From the NCBI RefSeq assembly GCF_053078305.1, contig NZ_CP166879.1: 64,000 nt of DNA; one strand, given 5' to 3'. The position numbers were made by a program, and so were the translations under genes. Of this stretch, positions 9,641 to 19,321 are shown in pieces (position 1 is the first letter of the stretch; each line of letters opens with the position of its first letter). A model generated the notes under the pieces. It saw only the letters and a list, made by a program, of their open reading frames with translations, did no database searches and had not been told where the DNA came from.

Positions 9641-12025
9641 TTAGAATGAAAGCCCTTCACCATCAGCCACAATCCTGTACCCCATCGCCTTATAACCCCG
9701 CTGGCGTTTATCCCACATTCTGAGCAGCACTGGATACGCGGTATCCACAAAATCAATGATCCTGACATCGCTTTTACCGGTATGCTCTCTGTGTAGACGT
9801 CCCGCATACTGCTGTAACGTCCCTTTCCATGACACAGGCATGGCAAGAATCAGCGTATCCAGCGGAGGGTGGTCAAATCCCTCACCAATAAGTCTGCCTG
9901 TTGACAACAAAATACGGGGAGAATCAGGAGGAAGAGCATTCAGCCCGGAAATCATCATAGTACGCTTTTTTTTCGATAATCGACTATGGAGAACAAAAGG
10001 CGACAATTTCAGTGTGTTCATCACTGAGGCTATATCATCCAGATGATCTGTACGTTCAGTCAGTACCAGAACTTTACGCCCCTGCCCAAAAGCTTTCATG
10101 GCTTCTTCAGCTATCGCCACCGTTCTGTCATGATCCAGAGCAATTTCTCTGAAAATATCCTGGATTCTCGCATCCGATGGTAAATGACCAGATGTAAAAC
10201 GGGAACGGGTCAGCACCTCCAGATTATGTGGGCTTTCCTTCGGGCGGGACGCTGTATGGCGAATGGCACCACAGTACATAAAAATAATGGGGTGCAGACC
10301 ATCCCGTCGGATTGGTGTTGCCGTCAGGCCAAGCAGATATCTGGCATTCGTTTCCTTCAGAATCGCAGAAAATGAAACCGCGCCAATATGATGGCACTCA
10401 TCCACAATGATTTGCCCATAATTCCTGACCAGAGGTTCAACTTCTCCGTGTCTGGATATGGACTGCACCACCGCAATATCAATATTGCCACAGGGTTTAT
10501 GTTTCCCTCCCCCGATAATACCAATACTGTCACCGGCCTGCAGAAACACCGCGAGACGCTCCTGCCACTGCTTCAGCAATTCAGTCCGGTGTACCAGTAT
10601 CAGTGTATTCACTTTCCGTCTGGCAATCACTGCCGCTGCGGTAACTGTCTTACCAAAAGCCGTTGGCGCACAAAGCACACCAGTGTCATAACGGAGTAAT
10701 GCCGAAACGGCCTCTTCCTGCTCCGCTCTGAGGTTTCCCATAAAAACGGCATTACATTCCGTCCCGGCAAATCGTTTATCGATTAATTCTGCAGCAATAT
10801 TGTTGTCCCTAAGGAAAGATAATACGCTGTCCAGACATCCCCGGGGCAACGCAATGTGTTGCGGGTAATTCTCCGCACAACCTATAACACGGGGCTTATT
10901 CCAGACTGACATACGCATTGCCTGAGCCTTATAAAACTCAGGGTTCGGAAATGCTGCCAGCCGAATAAGTCGGTTAATCAGCACCTGAGGTAATTGCGCT
11001 TTTTCGAAATAGATCTGATTTGCCAGCGTGATTTTCAGCGGTTCAGCAACAGCAAGATTCAGTCTGTTTCCTGATGATTTTTTCCCTTCCCATGGCGTAC
11101 CCAGGTCTTCTTCGTTGATAAAGTTCACATCCAGAGGATGGATACTTCCTGTAGCCCGTAATATCGTCGGTTCAATATCCTGCACATTCATCGGGAGCAC
11201 CGACGCAAGAAAAGCCCACTGATCAGGATGAGGCTGGAAATTCATATCAACAAAAACACTTCCCCCCGATGCACGCGGTCTTTTTTGCAGAGGTAACGCG
11301 ATAAGATTACCAAATCCTCCTTTTGGCATCGTATCCTGATTAGGAAATAATCGGTCATAAGAACTCAATTGCAGCTGTCGGGTCCGGCTGCACGTATAGC
11401 TAATAACAGCAGTCCCCAGACGGCGAGCTTCGCGGGCCGAAACTCGTGAAGCAAAAAATATCCAGACATGCGCTCCCTGACGTGAGCGGGATATTTCCAG
11501 CACAGCGGGTACACCCAGCTCATCACAGGCTCGCATGAACGCGGATGCATCCTTCTGCCATTCAGCTTCATCAAAATCAACAGCCAGAAAATAACAGGAA
11601 TCATCTTCCAGCAACGGATATAACCCGGCAGTATGCGTGCCTGCCAGATGCTGGTAGATGACAAGATCAGATACAGGAATCAACTGACGGTGAACGCAGT
11701 CCCCACATTTTATCCGGGGCTTACCGCATATTCCCAACTGCCATTCGTTAGCGCAGGCCGGCGAGTACCCTGATTTGCCGCTGGTTTTACTTTCCCATCT
11801 AAGTGCCCATACATCATCACGCCCACGAAACAACCGACGAAATAATGCAACCTTCTCGTCGGTGGATAATACAGAAACGCGCTGCACAGGAGTCTGCGGT
11901 TTACGTCTCCATTCAATCCCATGAGCTTCAAGTAATGAGACCAGACGGGCATTTTCTGCCCTCAATGCAGCTAATTCATCGCTGTCAGATTTATGAACCA
12001 TATTCGTTACCTGTATCCGATCCAC
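9641..12025 (-). CDS. Superfamily-2 DEAD/DEAH (ResIII-like) helicase with N-terminal Cys/His-rich, possibly primase-polymerase-like domain
   Basis: 794 aa; helicase motifs AFGKTV (Walker A), IIVDECHH (DExH), LGLTATP, GEGFD, QQYAGRLHR; N-terminal C-x-C...C-x2-C-x-H cluster and VDFD...GAHVWIFF pattern; stop lies 18 bp from the PRTase stop (convergent). Confidence 0.7.
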   Translation of the reverse strand: MDRIQVTNMVHKSDSDELAALRAENARLVSLLEAHGIEWRRKPQTPVQRVSVLSTDEKVALFRRLFRGRDDVWALRWESKTSGKSGYSPACANEWQLGICGKPRIKCGDCVHRQLIPVSDLVIYQHLAGTHTAGLYPLLEDDSCYFLAVDFDEAEWQKDASAFMRACDELGVPAVLEISRSRQGAHVWIFFASRVSAREARRLGTAVISYTCSRTRQLQLSSYDRLFPNQDTMPKGGFGNLIALPLQKRPRASGGSVFVDMNFQPHPDQWAFLASVLPMNVQDIEPTILRATGSIHPLDVNFINEEDLGTPWEGKKSSGNRLNLAVAEPLKITLANQIYFEKAQLPQVLINRLIRLAAFPNPEFYKAQAMRMSVWNKPRVIGCAENYPQHIALPRGCLDSVLSFLRDNNIAAELIDKRFAGTECNAVFMGNLRAEQEEAVSALLRYDTGVLCAPTAFGKTVTAAAVIARRKVNTLILVHRTELLKQWQERLAVFLQAGDSIGIIGGGKHKPCGNIDIAVVQSISRHGEVEPLVRNYGQIIVDECHHIGAVSFSAILKETNARYLLGLTATPIRRDGLHPIIFMYCGAIRHTASRPKESPHNLEVLTRSRFTSGHLPSDARIQDIFREIALDHDRTVAIAEEAMKAFGQGRKVLVLTERTDHLDDIASVMNTLKLSPFVLHSRLSKKKRTMMISGLNALPPDSPRILLSTGRLIGEGFDHPPLDTLILAMPVSWKGTLQQYAGRLHREHTGKSDVRIIDFVDTAYPVLLRMWDKRQRGYKAMGYRIVADGEGLSF

Positions 12026-12151
12026 TGAGGCACCACGGCAAAAATTCGGGTCCCCTACACTGATGACAAAGCCGCCCTCTGCTGCCTATTAACTCAAGCA
12101 CCTCCCAACAACTTACAGAAACTTAATTCTAATACCTAATACAGCTGTAAT

Positions 12152-12715
12152 TCAGTTGTGTCGTGGTCGGCCGCGGTTACTTTTTTCGGGAAGCCTGCTA
12201 CGGCCCAGAATAATACCGTGTTCTTTCTGATCTTGTTTAGCCAGGTAGCTGAGGGCGTAACGTAAGTCGTCTACCGCAGATTTATCACTATAGTGAATCA
12301 CGTGATCGATACGCACCGGGTATTTGTCTTTAGCCCGGCACAGATGAAAATAACCCTCCCCTTCCGTGATCCGCCTCCAGATATCCCCCAGTTGCCTGGA
12401 TGTCTGATAAGAGTTCTTGTGACGTTGTCCATCCAGATAGCCGATAAAATGAATATGAAGCCCTTTGTCTGGTGTATATTCCATTACCCAGTAATATCCC
12501 GCCAGCATCGTTTGGGTTTCACTAAGTAAACGGTATATTTCAATACACATACTGTGCTTACAGGAATGCCCGAAACTGGGCGTGTCTTTCCTGTAGGCAA
12601 AATCAATTCTGAAAGGTAACAGTTTAGAAAAACGTTGAAACAGACCTTCCATGTGTTCATTCACGTCTTTCAGAATCGTGAAATTCATTTCGTAATTGGG
12701 GTTAGCATTATACAT
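12152..12715 (-). CDS. YagK/YfjJ-family (inovirus Gp2-like) cryptic-prophage protein
   Basis: 187 aa; position downstream of a yfjI-like gene and alpA matches the CP4-57/CP4-6 arrangement; family call is from memory, not a search. Confidence 0.5.
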   Translation of the reverse strand: MYNANPNYEMNFTILKDVNEHMEGLFQRFSKLLPFRIDFAYRKDTPSFGHSCKHSMCIEIYRLLSETQTMLAGYYWVMEYTPDKGLHIHFIGYLDGQRHKNSYQTSRQLGDIWRRITEGEGYFHLCRAKDKYPVRIDHVIHYSDKSAVDDLRYALSYLAKQDQKEHGIILGRSRLPEKSNRGRPRHN

Positions 12716-13677
12716 TTTATAGTCCTTACTTTATAAAACTCACAGGAAGAGGAAATTACGTAAATGCTGAGGATACAGAAACGTCGTACCACGGCATTAA
12801 TAAACTGGGTAACCAGTATGCAGACAACCTGATAAAACTGTTTCGTATTACCTCATTACAGTAATGGGAGTAATACTTCAGAATACAGTGAGACTCTCTT
12901 AAACTGAGGACCAGTACGAATTACAATGGTAAAAACACACCTCATAGAATTAAGTTTAAGAAAGTACCATTCAATCACTTACAGGAAGTAATCTGATCTT
13001 CACAAAAGTCAGCTATCGAATAGCCACAGGCAACATCGCTATTAGTATTGCCGTACCATTAAGTAAAAACAGAGACTCTGCAGAGAGAGCCTACAGATAT
13101 TTAACCTCACAATAAGAAGATTATTTCATACAGAAAAGATTATATTTACCCATACTTATAAACTGTAACGGAGATATAACGTACGAACTAAAGACAATAT
13201 ACTCTAATAGTGTTCCGGTACGTAACTAGTGTTAAATACAAACCAGACATACATTTAGTGGATTAACTTTCTCAATATTACGCTATGAGTGTAGTAACAT
13301 AATTTACACATAACTAAACCCCATACACCACCACACTGTAGTATATGGGGATAGACGCATTACGCACATACAGAATACTCAGCATAAAGAGGAGTGACAT
13401 TACGATAAAAAGAGACAACATAACTCCCATTAATAATACTAATTAACCTAAATTATTTATTGAATACGAAAACAATGAGGGGGTCTCCTCATCCAAGACT
13501 AAAGCCAGCAATATCCTGAACAACACTCTATCCAATAGTAAACAATGGTTATACCAGTTATATTTGCTGACTGATCTGTACCAGAGTTCTGTAATACAAC
13601 AACGCTGACATGGTAAAAGCATTAGTCTCCTCCGCAAGTAGCAGAGGAGACTATATGTTACTCAACGATTAAGTCGT

Positions 13678-15132
13678 TCAGAGGTCAAAGTTAGGTGCGA
13701 CATACCACGTTTTGTCGTCAATAAACTGTACAACTCTGTTTTGCTCATACAGTAAATCCAGTAACCAGTTGAGTTTATCTTTTTTACGGAAACGGTTCGG
13801 ACCACGCTGTAAAATGTCATTTTTTCTCATACAGCGTATCCCCTTCTCAATGCAACAGCTTTTTATCCAGTTGAAAAGTTCAAGCTCCTCTGGAATGAGT
13901 CGCATAGGTACGGTCAGTGCAGAGTTTTCAAACGTTAACGGACTGGATAACCGAATATACTCATCGCCGTACCATATTGCTAATTCTCTCGCCATTTCAG
14001 CAGTGTAGGGGGAAATGTCACCTTCCTCACCGCTAAAATGGTGAATAAGCCCTGCCAGTCTTGCCATATACTCTGCATTTTTAGCAGCATATTCTCTGAA
14101 GTCTCTTAAAGGCCCCAGAACCGACATCTTCGATTCCACATTGTTGTAATAGTCCGTCCAGATTCTGGCTGCCTGAGGAGAAAAGTGAAGGCAACGCCGC
14201 TCTCCCCTCATAGCCAGGCTTTCATCAATGAGTTCATTTATCCTCTGTTCAAACAAATCCTGATACTGTGATGAATAATTATCTCCGGTTATTATTATCC
14301 TTGTCCCCTGCGTTGATGTTGGTTGACACATCAAAAACCTTGCATGATGTCCTGACGTTTTCACAAGTTCTTTTTTTCGTGTACAAAAACCTTTGTGGTA
14401 AACATCAGGCTGAACCATCACCGATATCGTCAGTCTTGGCTCCTTCAAAAAAATTCCGGGAGATGATTTCCTGTCGATGAAAAGAGAACCACCATCCCAC
14501 AAAGAGTTAAGTATTCCCAGTTTACTCATTGCCCGGCTGTCAAAAATTATCCCACCTTCACTGGATACAAGAGCAAAAGAGCGGTTGCTATCAGAATAAT
14601 ATTTTAACATTCCCTCTATCGTTGTATCATTAAAAATTGTTCGATGTATCTGTGGTGGAACAGGACACTTATTCAGATGTGTTTTAAGCTCTGATTCTGT
14701 TGTCTTATAATCTTTACCGGTACGAATCTCTTTATGAAGTTTTGACTCCAGTGCTTTTTGTTTTTGCGCCCATATTTCCTTTTCTGTACTGTAACTCTCA
14801 ACCAGTTTCGCGTATTCTTCCGCCAGGGCTTCATCCCTGAGATAAAATGCTTTCATAAACACTTTATCCACGGTCGTTTTCCTTTCACCAGAATCAGCCA
14901 GAATCATAGAGTAAATATTAGAGGACCCACGTAAATTTCCTGGTCTGCACACATCAACCTGATTCTGACAGGCAATTGACATCGCTGTTAATGCTGCAGT
15001 TATCGCCATAGCTATAGGTGTCTGTGTATTCTTTTGAGTTTCAATTATTGCATTTCTCGCCAGCGGTGGCATTGCATATATCGGACAAGGATTTTCTGGT
15101 GCAAGTAAGCACATAAATGCCTCTCTTTTCAT
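13678..15132 (-). CDS. YfjI-like (DUF3987-type) protein of P4-like integrative elements
   Basis: 484 aa, directly downstream of alpA-like gene; size and context match CP4-57 yfjI. Confidence 0.5.
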   Translation of the reverse strand: MKREAFMCLLAPENPCPIYAMPPLARNAIIETQKNTQTPIAMAITAALTAMSIACQNQVDVCRPGNLRGSSNIYSMILADSGERKTTVDKVFMKAFYLRDEALAEEYAKLVESYSTEKEIWAQKQKALESKLHKEIRTGKDYKTTESELKTHLNKCPVPPQIHRTIFNDTTIEGMLKYYSDSNRSFALVSSEGGIIFDSRAMSKLGILNSLWDGGSLFIDRKSSPGIFLKEPRLTISVMVQPDVYHKGFCTRKKELVKTSGHHARFLMCQPTSTQGTRIIITGDNYSSQYQDLFEQRINELIDESLAMRGERRCLHFSPQAARIWTDYYNNVESKMSVLGPLRDFREYAAKNAEYMARLAGLIHHFSGEEGDISPYTAEMARELAIWYGDEYIRLSSPLTFENSALTVPMRLIPEELELFNWIKSCCIEKGIRCMRKNDILQRGPNRFRKKDKLNWLLDLLYEQNRVVQFIDDKTWYVAPNFDL

Positions 15133-15362
15133 TAATGGGTTAGTAAAGTAGCAGCAACTCCCGCTATAATAGCGAAATAGCTGCTGTTCAGACCTAATGT
15201 TCTGAGAAATACAGAATATCTGTAGATCTGATGTTTAATAAACCGATAAGGTTAATTCAGTTCATACTGTGTTATTTACCACGAAATATCATTCATGTTT
15301 CTCATTCTTAACACCTCCTAAAATTATTTCACTAACACCTTCCCCCCGGTCTTTTTCCTTTC

Positions 15363-15590
15363 TCAGGAATCAGCCAGAACCATAGTGTAAATATTAACGG
15401 GCCCACGTAAATTTCCGGGGTTGCACACGTCAATCTGATTCTGACAGGCAATTGACATCGCTGTTAATAATGATGTTGTAGTCATAGCCAGAGATGCTTT
15501 TTCATTGTGTTGAGTTTCAATTATTGCATTTCCAGTCATTGATGGTTGCGCATATACTGGATACGGAGTATCCGGTTTGATGTAAGACAT
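15363..15590 (-). pseudogene. Truncated duplicate of the yfjI-like 5' end
   Basis: 75 aa ORF; DNA 15363-15480 is a diverged copy of 14883-15000 (shared ...ctgattctgacaggcaattgacatcgctgttaat...); the protein repeats the NAIIETQ...AMSIACQNQ.DVC.PGNLRG block. Confidence 0.5.
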
Positions 15591-15923: not shown

Positions 15924-16614
15924 ACTACCCTCCTGATATATCAATACTTTTTATTTCCGGCATGAGCATGAAATGACTAAGTTTCCCGGATAAACAATGA
16001 GTGAAAGTCACTATCATTCATCCAGTCAACACCTTGCAAATAAAATGTAATACCATGATTTTTATAGGTCAAAATACTGAATTACAATATTAAAATGGCT
16101 TTTAATAGAAAAAATAAAGACATATAGAGCCAAATAAAAACAAGCCGCGACCAATAAAAACAAAAAATTAATATTAAAAATCCATTATGACGATTTTTGT
16201 TGACTAAAATTAGGTTTGGATATATAAATAAATCCATGTAAAATTCAAACAAGGCATGGAGGAGTCGCAGGAAGGTGAAATATTTCCATCTAATTTGTGA
16301 TAATCATCACAAAAATAAGCTACAACAAGCGGAGGAAAAGACAATCTGTTGCTGAACAGACAGAAGCAGGCTACGAATGATCGGAAAATGAAGCAAATAC
16401 GCTTATACAGAAGACGCAGAGGTAACTGACGGAGACAATCACAATCAGGAGAAAATTATCGTAAATAATGTATAAAATCTCAGGATATAAACAAATGTAC
16501 ACAAGCTATCCACGTAATCAGCGGCTGGCTCAGGATTAACGTTTCATTTCAGTGGACAACATCGATTCTGTCTGACAGCGGACCAATATGTAGCAAGCAG
16601 AAACTTCTGACATC

Positions 16615-18252
16615 ATGGTAACTCGGACAATGCAACAAAAGTATCAGTATGATCGTGTTTTATCCGGCGAACTCCACCCATTCCCTGGCATATACGAGGC
16701 GGTTTCCGAACAAATCCTTTTGCTCATTTTTAAAGCACGTCAACTATATCAGGATCCAGAATATCGCCCCTGGTTTGAAGAACAGCACAGAGTACTCTCT
16801 GCATTACGTGCCAATACAGAGCTCCTGAGAATCTTTAGAGAACAAAGAAGCGCTGAAGAACCAAAGCTTACTATTGAAGAGTCTACCTCCCCCCAACCCA
16901 CTCCTTCTGCTCTTACAGATGCGCTTAATGTGATGTGCCATATATACAATGGTTTTGATGAAGGAAATATCAGTCTGAAAACCTGGGGGGCGATGCAAGA
17001 GGTACAGACAACATCAACCTTTATCAGCCCAGGACCGAGAACCTGGAAAACACCTGAACTGGCAAAGTTTGTAGGAGATGATTTATTTAATATTCTGACT
17101 GAATGTAAGGCCTGGAGTTCACCAATTCCAGCAGAAACCCGACAGGGGTATTGCCATCAGGATCTGTCTGTTGCACACTCCTGCACCTCAGAGTTACTGG
17201 CACACCTGAATCAATATCATGAAATTGATGAATCAGCAATACTTGCCAGAGTTATTGGTATAACAGTTAACGGATTCTACAAGAAAAATAATACAGACCT
17301 TCCAGAATGGCTATCCCCCTTTAAAGAGGAACATAAAATATTCAGAGATTGTCCGGAGCAAAATACCGGGGATGTAATCAGACGGAAAGAACAACTGTTG
17401 AAAACAGGACGTACAGAATTCGTGAATAATTTGTGTCGGGTCGCCAACTGGTATGAAATTGAGTCAATATACGATGAATACGTCCGTCTTTATGCCAATG
17501 AAATCATTGACTGGTTCAACAAAACCATGAAGTATTTTAAACCAACAGATTTTATCCGATATACATGGAAATTCGCAACAGTTACTCCGGATAAAGATAC
17601 AGAAACCGGGCATACAACTGCATGGGAAAAGGATTATTGCCAGATAACCATACAACGTGATGAACTTCTGAGGTTGATTCACACCAATACCCTTCAGGAT
17701 GCAGTAATTTATCTTTGTCATTGTCTGCAGAAGGAATACAAGAAATCATCCCAAAATGAGATAGAGTTCCCAGGAATAAAACCTCCGACATCAGAGAGTA
17801 AAATTAATATAACAAATAATATTAAATTTCATTCTCTCCTGGAGCTCAGTAAAGATAATGAGAAGCGTCTGGAAACATTTCAAAAATGGTATGAAAAAAA
17901 TAAAGTTTTGTTAGAAAGTCATAAACAAAAACGAACAGAGAAGATTGACGTTGCCGTACGACTTGTAGGGCTGAAAGCCTATGATCTGCATGAAGGGATT
18001 CCGGATAGTCCAAAACGAAAAGTTAAAGATGGCATAAATGAAGACATCAAAGCCGATACCAGTTTACGCCTGTCAAAGACAAATATAAGTGATACGTCGC
18101 TAAACCGTTATCGCCGCACTGTTAAGGAGATTATCAATAACGAAATTGACGCATTCCTGTTGGAACAGAAGAAAAAAAATAAAAGATTTCCCTACAGTGA
18201 AGATAGAGATGTGATTCGACCTTTATGGGGAAAATGCCTGACCGGGCAGTAG
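16615..18252 (+). CDS. Hypothetical protein (545 aa), AT-rich, no recognisable motif
   Basis: Long ATG-initiated ORF in a low-GC region between alpA and thrW; product unknown. Confidence 0.45.
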   Translation: MVTRTMQQKYQYDRVLSGELHPFPGIYEAVSEQILLLIFKARQLYQDPEYRPWFEEQHRVLSALRANTELLRIFREQRSAEEPKLTIEESTSPQPTPSALTDALNVMCHIYNGFDEGNISLKTWGAMQEVQTTSTFISPGPRTWKTPELAKFVGDDLFNILTECKAWSSPIPAETRQGYCHQDLSVAHSCTSELLAHLNQYHEIDESAILARVIGITVNGFYKKNNTDLPEWLSPFKEEHKIFRDCPEQNTGDVIRRKEQLLKTGRTEFVNNLCRVANWYEIESIYDEYVRLYANEIIDWFNKTMKYFKPTDFIRYTWKFATVTPDKDTETGHTTAWEKDYCQITIQRDELLRLIHTNTLQDAVIYLCHCLQKEYKKSSQNEIEFPGIKPPTSESKINITNNIKFHSLLELSKDNEKRLETFQKWYEKNKVLLESHKQKRTEKIDVAVRLVGLKAYDLHEGIPDSPKRKVKDGINEDIKADTSLRLSKTNISDTSLNRYRRTVKEIINNEIDAFLLEQKKKNKRFPYSEDRDVIRPLWGKCLTGQ

Positions 18253-18338
18253 ATCACAGATGGGATAACATCCCGGTTATCCCCTGTTTGTTCTGCTTCA
18301 GGTTGCCAGAGCTCCAGGAACACGAGGCAATCGGCAAA

Positions 18339-18935
18339 TTATGCGGCTTTTCCATTAACAGATTCGACCACAAGAACAACACCGTGTTTGTTTCGATCAG
18401 GATGTTCACTCCAGATTTCTGATTCAGGAATACTTTCCCCATCATAGCAGATCCGATCACCATCAAACGGATAATACCGTGCGGAATCTGTATCTAAGAT
18501 AAACACCTTAAGATTCGTTGAACGACGCGCTATATGCTGCCAGAGGGCTTTACCTCCTTCATATTGCTCGTTATCACTTAATAGTATAACGCCTGCTTTT
18601 GTGGCTATTGTTTCATAAACAAACGTAGCAAGGCTAACATCACGTACAGCGCCATCGACAACAATCCCTTCAATCTGAGCAACGTCCTGTTCTTCCCAGA
18701 ATTTCCGGACAACCCCCCCTTCAAGCTGTGAACGACGCTGAAGCTCCAGAGTGGCAACAACCTTATAGCGAATATCACCATCAATAACAGAAGGTGCAGC
18801 TTCGATTACCGCAGCGAACGGAGTCTTTGGATCCCAGATGATCTGGTAAAGCACACCCTGAATAGTTACTCCATCCAGTATCGAAAAACGACGAGCTACA
18901 GTAGCAGGGGAGTAAGACATTGGAATGACAGCCAT
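18339..18935 (-). CDS. Hypothetical protein (198 aa) next to the tRNA attachment site; not integrase-like
   Basis: ORF convergent with the 545-aa gene; occupies the position usually held by an integrase but is too short and shows no tyrosine-recombinase pattern. Confidence 0.4.
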   Translation of the reverse strand: MAVIPMSYSPATVARRFSILDGVTIQGVLYQIIWDPKTPFAAVIEAAPSVIDGDIRYKVVATLELQRRSQLEGGVVRKFWEEQDVAQIEGIVVDGAVRDVSLATFVYETIATKAGVILLSDNEQYEGGKALWQHIARRSTNLKVFILDTDSARYYPFDGDRICYDGESIPESEIWSEHPDRNKHGVVLVVESVNGKAA

Positions 18936-19245
18936 TTTATGGCCTAAAATTTGAAAACATCAGTATCAATACTGACCTCATCAGTCTGAGCATATATTGA
19001 TAAAGTTTTTATGTTTACACTCAATAAATACCTTGCTAAACAACTAATAGCGATGTCTACATTGCCATTCGACATGCTTACAATTTTTGTCAACAAGAAA
19101 GTGAATTTATATCAACGGTAAGAAGTAAACACGAGGACACCAAAACCAAATGTATACACTTTTGTGCTTTGTGTCCCCTGTGTGTACCCAAATGACAAAC
19201 TGCAAGAAAATCTAGGCACACACTTATCTAACTTATTGATTTAAA

Positions 19246-19321
19246 TGGTGCCGATAATAGGAGTCGAACCTACGACCTTCGCATTACGAATGCGCTGCTC
19301 TACCAACTGAGCTATATCGGC
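19246..19321 (-). tRNA. thrW: tRNA-Thr (anticodon CGT)
   Basis: Reverse complement reads GCCGATATAGCTCAGTTGGTAGAGCAGCGCATTCGTAATGCGAAGGTCGTAGGTTCGACTCCTATTATCGGCACCA, 76 nt with cloverleaf-compatible stems and CCA end. Confidence 0.9.

Follow-up and report, generated by a model that had tools for sequence, protein, structure and literature searches.

A gene-free intergenic region of an Escherichia coli island carries a putative cis element conserved across genera upstream of yagK homologues

Introduction

Genes of the YagK/YfjJ ('inovirus Gp2-like') family, alpA and the integrase gene are recurrent core genes of the intY/alpA islands, which carry virulence and anti-phage cargo. Our search of the literature on the function of YagK/YfjJ proteins found nothing beyond their listing as island core genes. 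Here we analyzed the intergenic DNA upstream of one such yagK gene in an island of Escherichia coli. This gap of 962 base pairs (bp) occupies positions 12716-13677 of a 64,000-nucleotide (nt) stretch of contig NZ_CP166879.1 (RefSeq assembly GCF_053078305.1), hereafter the window, and separates yagK from yfjI, both of which lie on the minus strand (hereafter the gene strand). Within the gap lies a core of ~23 nt that is conserved across genera upstream of yagK homologues.

The described region closest to the gap is that of yagK in the cryptic prophage CP4-6 of E. coli K-12. Its promoter, TTTAGA-16-TATAAT, was bound by RpoD-holoenzyme in systematic evolution of ligands by exponential enrichment (SELEX), and H-NS is listed for the spacer (PMC3946193). 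Like the gap, it is an AT-rich spacer before a YagK/YfjJ-family gene and has an AGGT...-10-like...GG element 100-200 nt upstream, CCTGTA motifs and leader hairpins. It differs in the length of the spacer (271 bp versus 962 bp here) and in sequence, the proteins being barely alignable and the element not alignable base for base.

Q-type antitermination promoters and those of Pseudomonas AlpA are comparable in other respects. The AlpA protein of Pseudomonas aeruginosa has its binding element between -35 and -10 and allows RNA polymerase to pass the intrinsic terminators of the leader (PMC7969949; PMC9371919). The gap shares with these promoters a conserved block at the candidate spacer/-10 position, leader hairpins resembling terminators and a linked AlpA-family gene (PMC7969949, PMC9371919). 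Island DNA silenced by H-NS is a further parallel, as the gap is 64% A+T within an island and has received insertion sequence (IS) elements, with H-NS listed for the K-12 spacer (PMC3946193). In contrast to such DNA, the high-affinity H-NS motif is not enriched here and promoter-like sites are below chance.

Double-strand origins of rolling-circle replication, such as those of the pMV158 family and phiX174, have a nic locus and a bind locus beside the rep gene, and the origins and mob genes of small rolling-circle plasmids often overlap promoters. The gap is like them in having a short conserved site beside a gene for a predicted HUH Rep-like protein and AT-rich, easily melted DNA; relatives of the gap also have direct repeats beside the site, which are lineage-specific. 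Unlike these origins, the site has no conserved hairpin, the window has no iterons, and the element is chromosomal and single-copy.

A core conserved across genera

A scan based on an alignment of YagK, with one genome per species, yielded 30 loci. When the gap was compared by BLAST with the upstream regions of these 30 loci, one short piece matched, at window positions 13454-13421, and it contains the core, which reads AATTTAGGTTAATTAGTATTATTAATGG on the gene strand. The 17-mer AGGTTAATTARTRTTAT was found in 20 loci, with one copy per locus, upstream of yagK and in the same orientation; the 64-kb window has one copy, compared with 0.03 expected. The core was also present in loci fetched via individual YagK proteins. 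It occurs in Escherichia, Edaphovirga, Budvicia, Citrobacter, Buttiauxella, Kluyvera, Cedecea and Erwinia, linked to YagK homologues with 33-97% protein identity. A distant group, comprising loci from Klebsiella, Enterobacter, Citrobacter, Hafnia, Pectobacterium and others, carries at the same relative position the variant GGGTTTTTAGTATAATTAA / GAACATTTGGGTTTTTAGTATAATTAAGG, which has a perfect TATAAT. Core and variant together accompany yagK homologues in at least 10 genera.

The joint profile of core and variant, A..T..GG.T..TTAgTAT.ATTAA, has ~23 informative positions. It shows no conservation of a -35 hexamer, and the flanks of the core are not alignable between genera. The distance from the core to the start codon of yagK ranges from 118 to 1018 nt, being 118-266 nt in most genera and 368, 583 or ~1000 nt in others; in the window it is ~730 nt (705 nt from the end of the 34-nt element). 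Our literature search for the core motif sequence found no paper. The core is conserved between genera, and its sequence and placement suggest an undescribed, deeply conserved cis element tied to island genes of the YagK/YfjJ family. By eye, neither a dif/XerCD site nor a sigma-54 promoter consensus was matched at the core.

We also scanned 2.9 million viral contigs for the core motif. The 26 hits are near the chance number, itself a rough estimate; one has YagK downstream and is an E. coli-type island, the other 25 have no YagK, and in phage contigs the motif was never found with Rep genes.

Gene content of the gap

The gap is bounded by the ATG of yagK (12715-12713, minus strand) and the stop codon of yfjI (13678-13680). 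Its G+C content is 0.357; the window as a whole has 0.469, yagK 0.445 and yfjI 0.414. This bears out the AT-richness noted in a sequence-only reading of this stretch; only 9% of the 962-nt segments in the 64 kb are at least as AT-rich, making the gap AT-rich, not extreme. On the plus strand A makes up 38% and T 26% (AT skew ~+0.2), and the gene strand of the gap is therefore T-rich; those of the flanking genes are not. The many short runs mentioned in the same reading do not amount to repeats: our repeat searches found no tandem repeats in the gap, only short, chance-like direct repeats in two copies. Neither origin iterons nor a repeat family was found in the window beyond short two-copy matches, and in a k-mer test the count of CGTAAT (4 versus 0.3) was not significant after correction for multiple testing.

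The gap contains no gene. Its longest open reading frame (ORF) in six frames, of 64 amino acids (aa), is at the level of dinucleotide shuffles (59 +/- 15 aa, with 31% reaching 64), in keeping with the earlier statement that no ORF of coding quality lies here. The small ORFs (59/64-aa, 38-aa and 40-aa) match no PHROGs or NCBIfam family, and none is conserved among the island variants. A protein-coding gene or pseudogene was rejected on these grounds, namely ORF length at chance, truncation or absence of the three longest minus-strand ORFs in variants, and lack of a family. The 59-aa ORF, with its ATG at 13622 preceded by GGAGGAG within the stem of the yfjI terminator described below, is shortened to 41-42 aa in about half of the variants, shows many non-synonymous changes and is probably not a gene. 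The 40-aa ORF is as unstable among variants as the 38-aa ORF, which is considered below with a possible toxin.

The suggestion of a small RNA in the gap found no backing in a covariance-model scan: over positions 11500-15500, Rfam 15 at E <= 10 gave 7 matches, all chance-like and none at threshold, the best scoring 22.6 bits against a gathering threshold of 55 for a eukaryotic small nucleolar RNA model. Short terminated leader transcripts from the gap are possible.

Organization of the gap

We aligned the full gap in twelve E. coli and E. albertii variants (island loci are cited here by L numbers). From yfjI to yagK, its parts are the yfjI terminator, a conserved 130-nt block, a second hairpin, the invariant stretch GGTTAATTAGTATTATTA, a 12-nt unit, a variable middle and ~400 nt on the yagK side (Table 1). 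The stretch GGTTAATTAGTATTATTA is perfectly conserved in this alignment, and the ~400 nt nearest yagK are better conserved than the variable middle. Mean pairwise identity was computed among six E. coli variants.

Table 1 Features of the gap and its flanking genes, with mean pairwise identity among six E. coli variants
Feature	Position in window	Strand	Identity	Remarks
yfjI (DUF3987)	13678-15132	minus		
Whole gap	12716-13677		0.856	third codon positions: yagK 0.875, yfjI 0.878
yfjI-proximal block	13476-13677		0.917	
Predicted yfjI intrinsic terminator	13613-13653	minus		terminator scan; folding; conservation
yfjI-linked block between the two hairpins	13494-13622	minus		best-conserved part of the gap within E. 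coli
Second terminator-like hairpin	13464-13493	minus		stem-loop 13493-13474, directly upstream of the core
Family-wide conserved core	13430-13454	minus		AATTTAGGTTAATTAGTATTATTAA, ~23 nt; single-copy, cross-genus
12-nt unit	13413-13424	minus		GTTATGTTGTCT (GTTATGTTRTCT); directly after the core; from the alignment
Variable middle segment	13176-13409	minus		dispensable in some lineages
Middle	13111-13410		0.781	below synonymous sites
Proximal leader	12716-13110		0.879	
Conserved leader hairpin, terminator-/attenuator-like	13061-13097	minus		CTGTAGG..CTGCAG, then GTCTCTGTTTTTAC; terminator scan
Conserved leader hairpin	12835-12866	minus		GTATTAC(C)TCCCAT..ATGAGGTAATAC; 8-14 bp by variant
yagK-proximal leader	12716-12770	minus		family motif and hairpin occluding the Shine-Dalgarno sequence
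yagK	12152-12715	minus		187 aa, C-terminal RGRPR tail; gene with which the gap travels
TOTE-type primase-helicase gene	9641-12025	minus		downstream of yagK

The gap has a modular build, and its linkage is to yagK, not to yfjI. In the islands L009 and L010 the upstream gene encodes an unrelated protein of 607 aa, and the intergenic region, 1.2 kb long with the base composition of the gap, is collinear with window positions 12716-13106 (82% identity), 13201-13279 (68%) and 13405-13475 (83%), but not with 13476-13677. By this pattern of collinearity, the last ~200 bp of the gap belong to yfjI and the remaining ~760 bp to yagK. The yfjI-linked block is likewise missing where the upstream gene is not yfjI (L009, L015).

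On the yfjI side, a stem-loop at 13653-13623, TAGTCTCCTCTGC-TACTT-GCGGAGGAGACTA followed by the tail ATGCTTTTAC, begins 24 nt past the yfjI stop codon and has 13 pairs (7 G-C). It folds with z = -6.9 on the gene strand and is present in every yfjI-linked variant, L007 showing a compensatory change. By the usual criteria it is a predicted intrinsic (Rho-independent) terminator. The block that follows has no folding signal (z = -0.8). In the second hairpin, ATGAGG-AGACCC-CCTCAT and then TGTTTTCGT, the stem persists in L007 and L012 despite wobble or loop changes, and the L002 type has a weaker version. This position is occupied in E. albertii by a strong terminator that differs from the hairpin.

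Past the core, the 12-nt unit is present once in the window and in one to three copies in E. coli islands, while in L049 (1539-1640) and L042 about eight 13-nt direct repeats, TGTAAnTnnAnCn, start ~25 nt beyond the core. The variable middle includes a 13-bp hairpin (13350-13319) and most of the 38-aa ORF, and is partly or wholly deleted in E. albertii L015 and in L012/L014. Its hairpin is strong in the window, decays in L004, L005 and L007, and is deleted elsewhere. Two hairpins nearer to yagK are maintained. The arms of the one at 13097-13077 are CTGTAGG/CTGCAG in the window, GTGAGG/CCTCAC in L009 and CTGTAGAG/CTCTGCAG in L012/L014, and the T-run after it (CTGTTTTTAC) is kept despite this replacement. 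The one at 12866-12835, followed by ACAGTTTTAT, has compensatory changes in its upper stem and folding energies of -11 to -20 kcal/mol. A terminator scan of the gene strand found 7 terminator-like sites, compared with 0.7 expected.

Close to the start codon, the box CATTTACGTAAT at 12766-12755 is the counterpart of the family motif AAAAATTACA. It is followed by a CT-rich stretch (12755-12744) complementary to the Shine-Dalgarno (SD) sequence, AAGGA at 12727-12723, 7 nt before the ATG. Near the start codon, (T/C)AAAAATTAC(A/G) is common to all genera, and after it comes a hairpin with the SD sequence as its 3' arm. The arms differ by genus yet remain complementary (CTTCCT.../...AGGAAG, TTTCCTCTGA/TCAGAGGAAA, ATCCTTTG/CAAAGGAT and ATCTATC/GATAGAT), and for 9 of 15 representatives the SD-occluding hairpin reaches significance (z <= -2.3).

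The pentamer CTGTA, often as CCTGTA, was seen 25 times on the gene strand of the 15 pooled leaders, compared with 7.8 expected (z = 6.3), an excess to be read with the motif having been picked after seeing the data and with hairpin arms contributing to it. The window's leader has seven sites (minus strand, at 13373, 13133, 13096, 12984, 12888, 12861 and 12778) versus 2.0 expected; in the k-mer test the count (7 versus 2.4) was not significant after multiple testing. The K-12 yagK leader is likewise rich in CTGTA. LexA boxes at these sites were rejected, as no CTGT-N8-ACAG was seen by eye.

The YagK and AlpA proteins

YagK homologues share the motifs RIDFAY, G-L-H-I-H-F (the HUH motif) and RY-x-L-S-Y-L-A-K, carry a Y-x3-Y motif and, when full-length, all end in an invariant, AT-hook-like R-G-R-P-R. 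Pfam gave sub-threshold hits to REP_ORF2-G2P and YagK_YfjJ_C. The AlphaFold model of YagK has a predicted local distance difference test score (pLDDT) of 90, and its best Foldseek match, a weak one, is to the nuclease domains of parvovirus NS1 and adeno-associated virus Rep (E = 8e-4, template modeling score 0.35); a sequence search of solved structures with YagK returned nothing meaningful. On the HUH motif, the Pfam hits and the fold matches, YagK is predicted to be an HUH-type, Rep-like protein. Annotations call the family no more than 'inovirus-type Gp2' or 'YagK/YfjJ domain'.

An AlpA-family gene (PF05930) lies at most 3 kb from yagK in nearly every locus fetched. Outside E. coli (L017-L044; for example, L027 4660-4884) alpA is found ~100 nt downstream of yagK on the same strand in nearly every locus, an operon-like arrangement from which yagK-alpA appears to be the ancestral operon. 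In E. coli islands alpA is upstream of yfjI and comes in two types that tblastn does not detect from one another, with an identical core in both.

A proposed order of terminator, promoter/operator core and long leader

Our favored reading, to which we lean with somewhat more confidence than doubt, is that the gap consists of a terminator, then a promoter/operator core and then a long 5' leader controlling yagK. Transcription of yfjI would end at the strong terminator at 13653-13623, with the second hairpin (13493-13474) as a backup. Some 20 nt further on, the core would serve as the -10/spacer region, with an embedded operator, for the yagK unit. From there to yagK, transcripts would span ~700 nt of T-rich leader with hairpins, and the hairpins at 13097-13077 and 12866-12835, each before a T-rich tract, may attenuate read-through. 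Near the start codon, the CT-rich stretch could pair with the SD sequence. The remaining DNA would be mostly neutral spacer that grows, shrinks and accepts IS insertions, and the AT-rich tract is probably also bound by H-NS.

A promoter in the gap, which the sequence-only reading had raised as a possibility, has indirect support. The core is placed just after the terminators of the upstream gene and offers two candidate -10 hexamers, TAGTAT (13441-13436) and TATTAT (13438-13433), with the A at position 2 and the T at position 6 invariant across genera. The best promoter candidate, TTCAAT-17-TAGTAT, has 7 of 12 consensus positions. In K-12, GGATAGGTATTATATAATGG, which looks similar, is found 170 nt before the distant paralogue yagK and was reported as the promoter bound by RpoD-holoenzyme. 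A strict sigma-70 scan came up empty, finding no site at 12500-13900 versus 5.0 +/- 2.2 in dinucleotide shuffles. Such depletion of sigma-70 sites is unusual for AT-rich, horizontally acquired DNA.

The empty scan is one of several findings that weigh against our favored reading. The -35 is neither conserved nor good in the window (TTCAAT at 13464-13459, a weak 3/6 match with a 17-nt spacer), and the conserved positions, which are mostly 'spacer', fit a protein-binding or nick site at least as well. The range of core-to-yagK distances is unusual for a 5' leader. The long leaders found in other lineages show no enrichment of terminator-like hairpins (one in L049, none in L048), and the window's own SD hairpin (CATTTACGTAAT...TCCT...AAGGA) is weak, with z = -0.06. 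Homology between the K-12 yagK promoter and the core is not established, because the K-12 paralogue is only ~21-26% identical, in short stretches. Finally, within E. coli the gap diverges about like synonymous sites (0.856 versus 0.875). Judged by this rate, most of it has no visible constraint and looks like neutral spacer at E. coli depth; constraint is visible only at the core and the proximal leader, in comparisons across genera, and in the compensatory changes of the hairpins.

Silencing by a nucleoid protein, also raised in the sequence-only reading, is plausible given the AT-richness and the K-12 paralogue. With up to 2 mismatches allowed, the H-NS motif TCGATAAATT occurs once in the gap and 80 times in the window versus 83 expected, and is thus not enriched.

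Alternative explanations

The main rival explanation, which we consider unlikely, is that the core may be a site that YagK, as an HUH protein, recognizes or nicks in an origin of rolling-circle type (double-strand origin or origin of transfer, oriT). Under this proposal, the short repeats downstream would be the binding locus of YagK, the excised island would be replicated or mobilized, and the origin may overlap the yagK promoter. A continuous block of ~23 nt without a -35 is like a protein site, its distance from yagK is free, and the neighboring gene encodes a predicted HUH endonuclease-type protein whose invariant RGRPR tail would suit AT-rich DNA. The eight 13-nt iterons of L049 and L042 and the one to three 12-nt units of E. 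coli islands lie directly downstream, but the window has a single 12-nt unit and no iteron array. A TTAAT-[TAGTATT]-ATTAA stem can form in about half of the lineages; this small AT hairpin is, however, not conserved, being missing in L020, L018, L042 and the whole distant group. TAGTATTAT is similar to the circovirus nonanucleotide TAGTATTAC, which is a lead and not a test. Our literature search found no report of nicking or replication for any YagK/YfjJ protein, in phage contigs the motif does not accompany Rep genes, and the 64 kb contain just one copy. The K-12 lookalike binds RNA polymerase holoenzyme in vitro, a result for which a promoter is the simpler explanation. A smaller chance falls to an antitermination cassette of the Q/AlpA type, in which the core would be a loading site, between -35 and -10, for the island's AlpA-family protein and polymerase would read through the leader hairpins into yagK and the cargo. 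The position of the conserved block, the several terminator-like hairpins downstream on the same strand and the nearly constant presence of an AlpA-family gene are in line with this. In Pseudomonas AlpA, however, residues as far as position 142 contact DNA and an N-terminal segment forms a ring (PMC9371919), whereas the island AlpA proteins have 68-82 aa, with a helix-turn-helix (HTH) only and no ring part. Moreover, the core is unlike the Pseudomonas element GGGACG-N5-GGTA (PMC7969949), and no pause element was identified. Two AlpA types share an identical core in different E. coli islands, and the leaders of other lineages lack an enrichment of terminator-like hairpins.

It also seems quite improbable to us that everything beyond the yfjI terminator is functionless filler, that is, remnants of decayed genes or insertions kept because the island is young and spreads horizontally. 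Such filler would account for divergence at the rate of synonymous sites (faster in the middle), for large deletions in some lineages and IS elements in several strains, for the very different lengths between lineages and for the broken hydrophobic ORFs. Yet the core survives between genera at 33-58% YagK identity amid scrambled surroundings, two leader hairpins keep pairing via changes on both arms, and the proximal motif and SD hairpin are family-wide. Most of the gap can therefore be put down to filler, these parts excepted. Least credible, and very improbable in our judgment, is that the gap encodes a small RNA acting in trans or a toxin-antitoxin pair of type I. As candidate toxin we considered the hydrophobic 38-aa ORF at 13430..13314 (minus strand), which starts in the core and ends at the hairpin 13350-13319; its product, MGVMLSLFIVMSLLFMLSILYV..., is membrane-peptide-like, the insertions of the 12-nt repeat are in frame, and 13300-13430 folds well on the gene strand (z = -4.25). 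However, any T-rich strand is expected to contain hydrophobic ORFs, several variants show decay of the hairpin, and neither an Rfam nor a protein family match was found. The ORF is shortened to 13-17 aa in L005, L007 and L013, and the segment is largely deleted in other variants (L012, L014 and E. albertii). We rejected a type I toxin-antitoxin locus on this truncation or deletion in most divergent variants.

Island context and distribution

The window matches E. coli STEC17-190 (NZ_CP075649.1) with 100% identity. The island holding the gap adjoins tRNA-Thr, proA, proB and phoE, and its minus-strand gene order is an AlpA-family HTH gene, a DUF3987 fragment, yfjI, the gap, yagK and the TOTE-type primase-helicase gene. 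The product of the last has a TOTE-type archaeo-eukaryotic primase domain fused to a superfamily 2 helicase (Pfam AEP-TOTE, E = 1e-97), and the gene follows yagK in many islands, not all. The DUF3987 fragment lies at 15363-15590 (minus strand), with alpA on one side and the intact yfjI on the other, and is a 75-aa ORF that repeats the N-terminus of YfjI; RefSeq lists it as an incomplete DUF3987 pseudogene, and several island variants have it. From alpA to tRNA-Thr (~16600-19320, the tRNA gene being at ~19243-19318), RefSeq lists two hypothetical proteins only. As no integrase is listed there, the window's copy of the island may be unable to excise.

Homologous gap DNA was found in 1584 of 5426 complete E. 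coli genomes (~29%), covering at least 80% of the gap length in 635, mostly with 80-95% identity and usually in one copy per genome. Carriers include Nissle 1917, ABU 83972, ATCC 25922 and O157:H7. The homologous DNA is flanked by a YfjI-family gene and a YagK/'inovirus-type Gp2' gene, and on the far side of yagK the cargo differs between islands, being TOTE primase, Zorya, enterotoxin or IS elements. Among the records listed, RefSeq has no annotation inside the gap; the few that name the YfjI gene there do so because the annotated YfjI end overlaps the match by a few bases. Matches in the plasmid collection were all to E. coli records, no homologues of the gap DNA were found in phages, and a first genome scan with the YfjI protein as query gave no matches. 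In K-12 CP4-57 the yfjI-yfjJ spacing is 152 bp, without similarity to the gap.

IS elements have struck the gap or its edge in several strains, with IS2 inside it in strain Esc3 (L011 3518-4746) and an IS3-family element between gap and yagK in O157:H7 SS17 (L006 1213-2425); the gap is therefore a recurrent IS target. In E. coli PEC41 an isolated 96-nt gap fragment (L081 2501-2596; window 12990-13087, 91% identity) has a truncated terminase gene on one side and a truncated IS3 transposase on the other and looks like a rearrangement scar.

Implications

Overall, the gap is a real, largely ordinary intergenic control region, and the conserved putative cis element is its one new point. For annotation, this means that no gene has been missed in the 1-kb 'hole' that 1584 complete E. 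coli genomes share. The 23-nt element also provides an experimental handle, since it can be mutated (the altered form named for the core segment GGTTAATTAG is CCAATTAATC) and can be used as bait for a binding protein. It thereby lets one ask whether YagK is an autoregulated regulator or a working initiator of replication or mobilization. Were the core indeed a rolling-circle origin, a large class of tRNA-integrated islands of the Enterobacteriaceae, spanning pathogenicity, defence and CP4-type islands that start with alpA-yfjI-yagK, would own a replication or mobilization module of this kind, and its cis site would have gone unannotated in ~29% of complete E. coli genomes.

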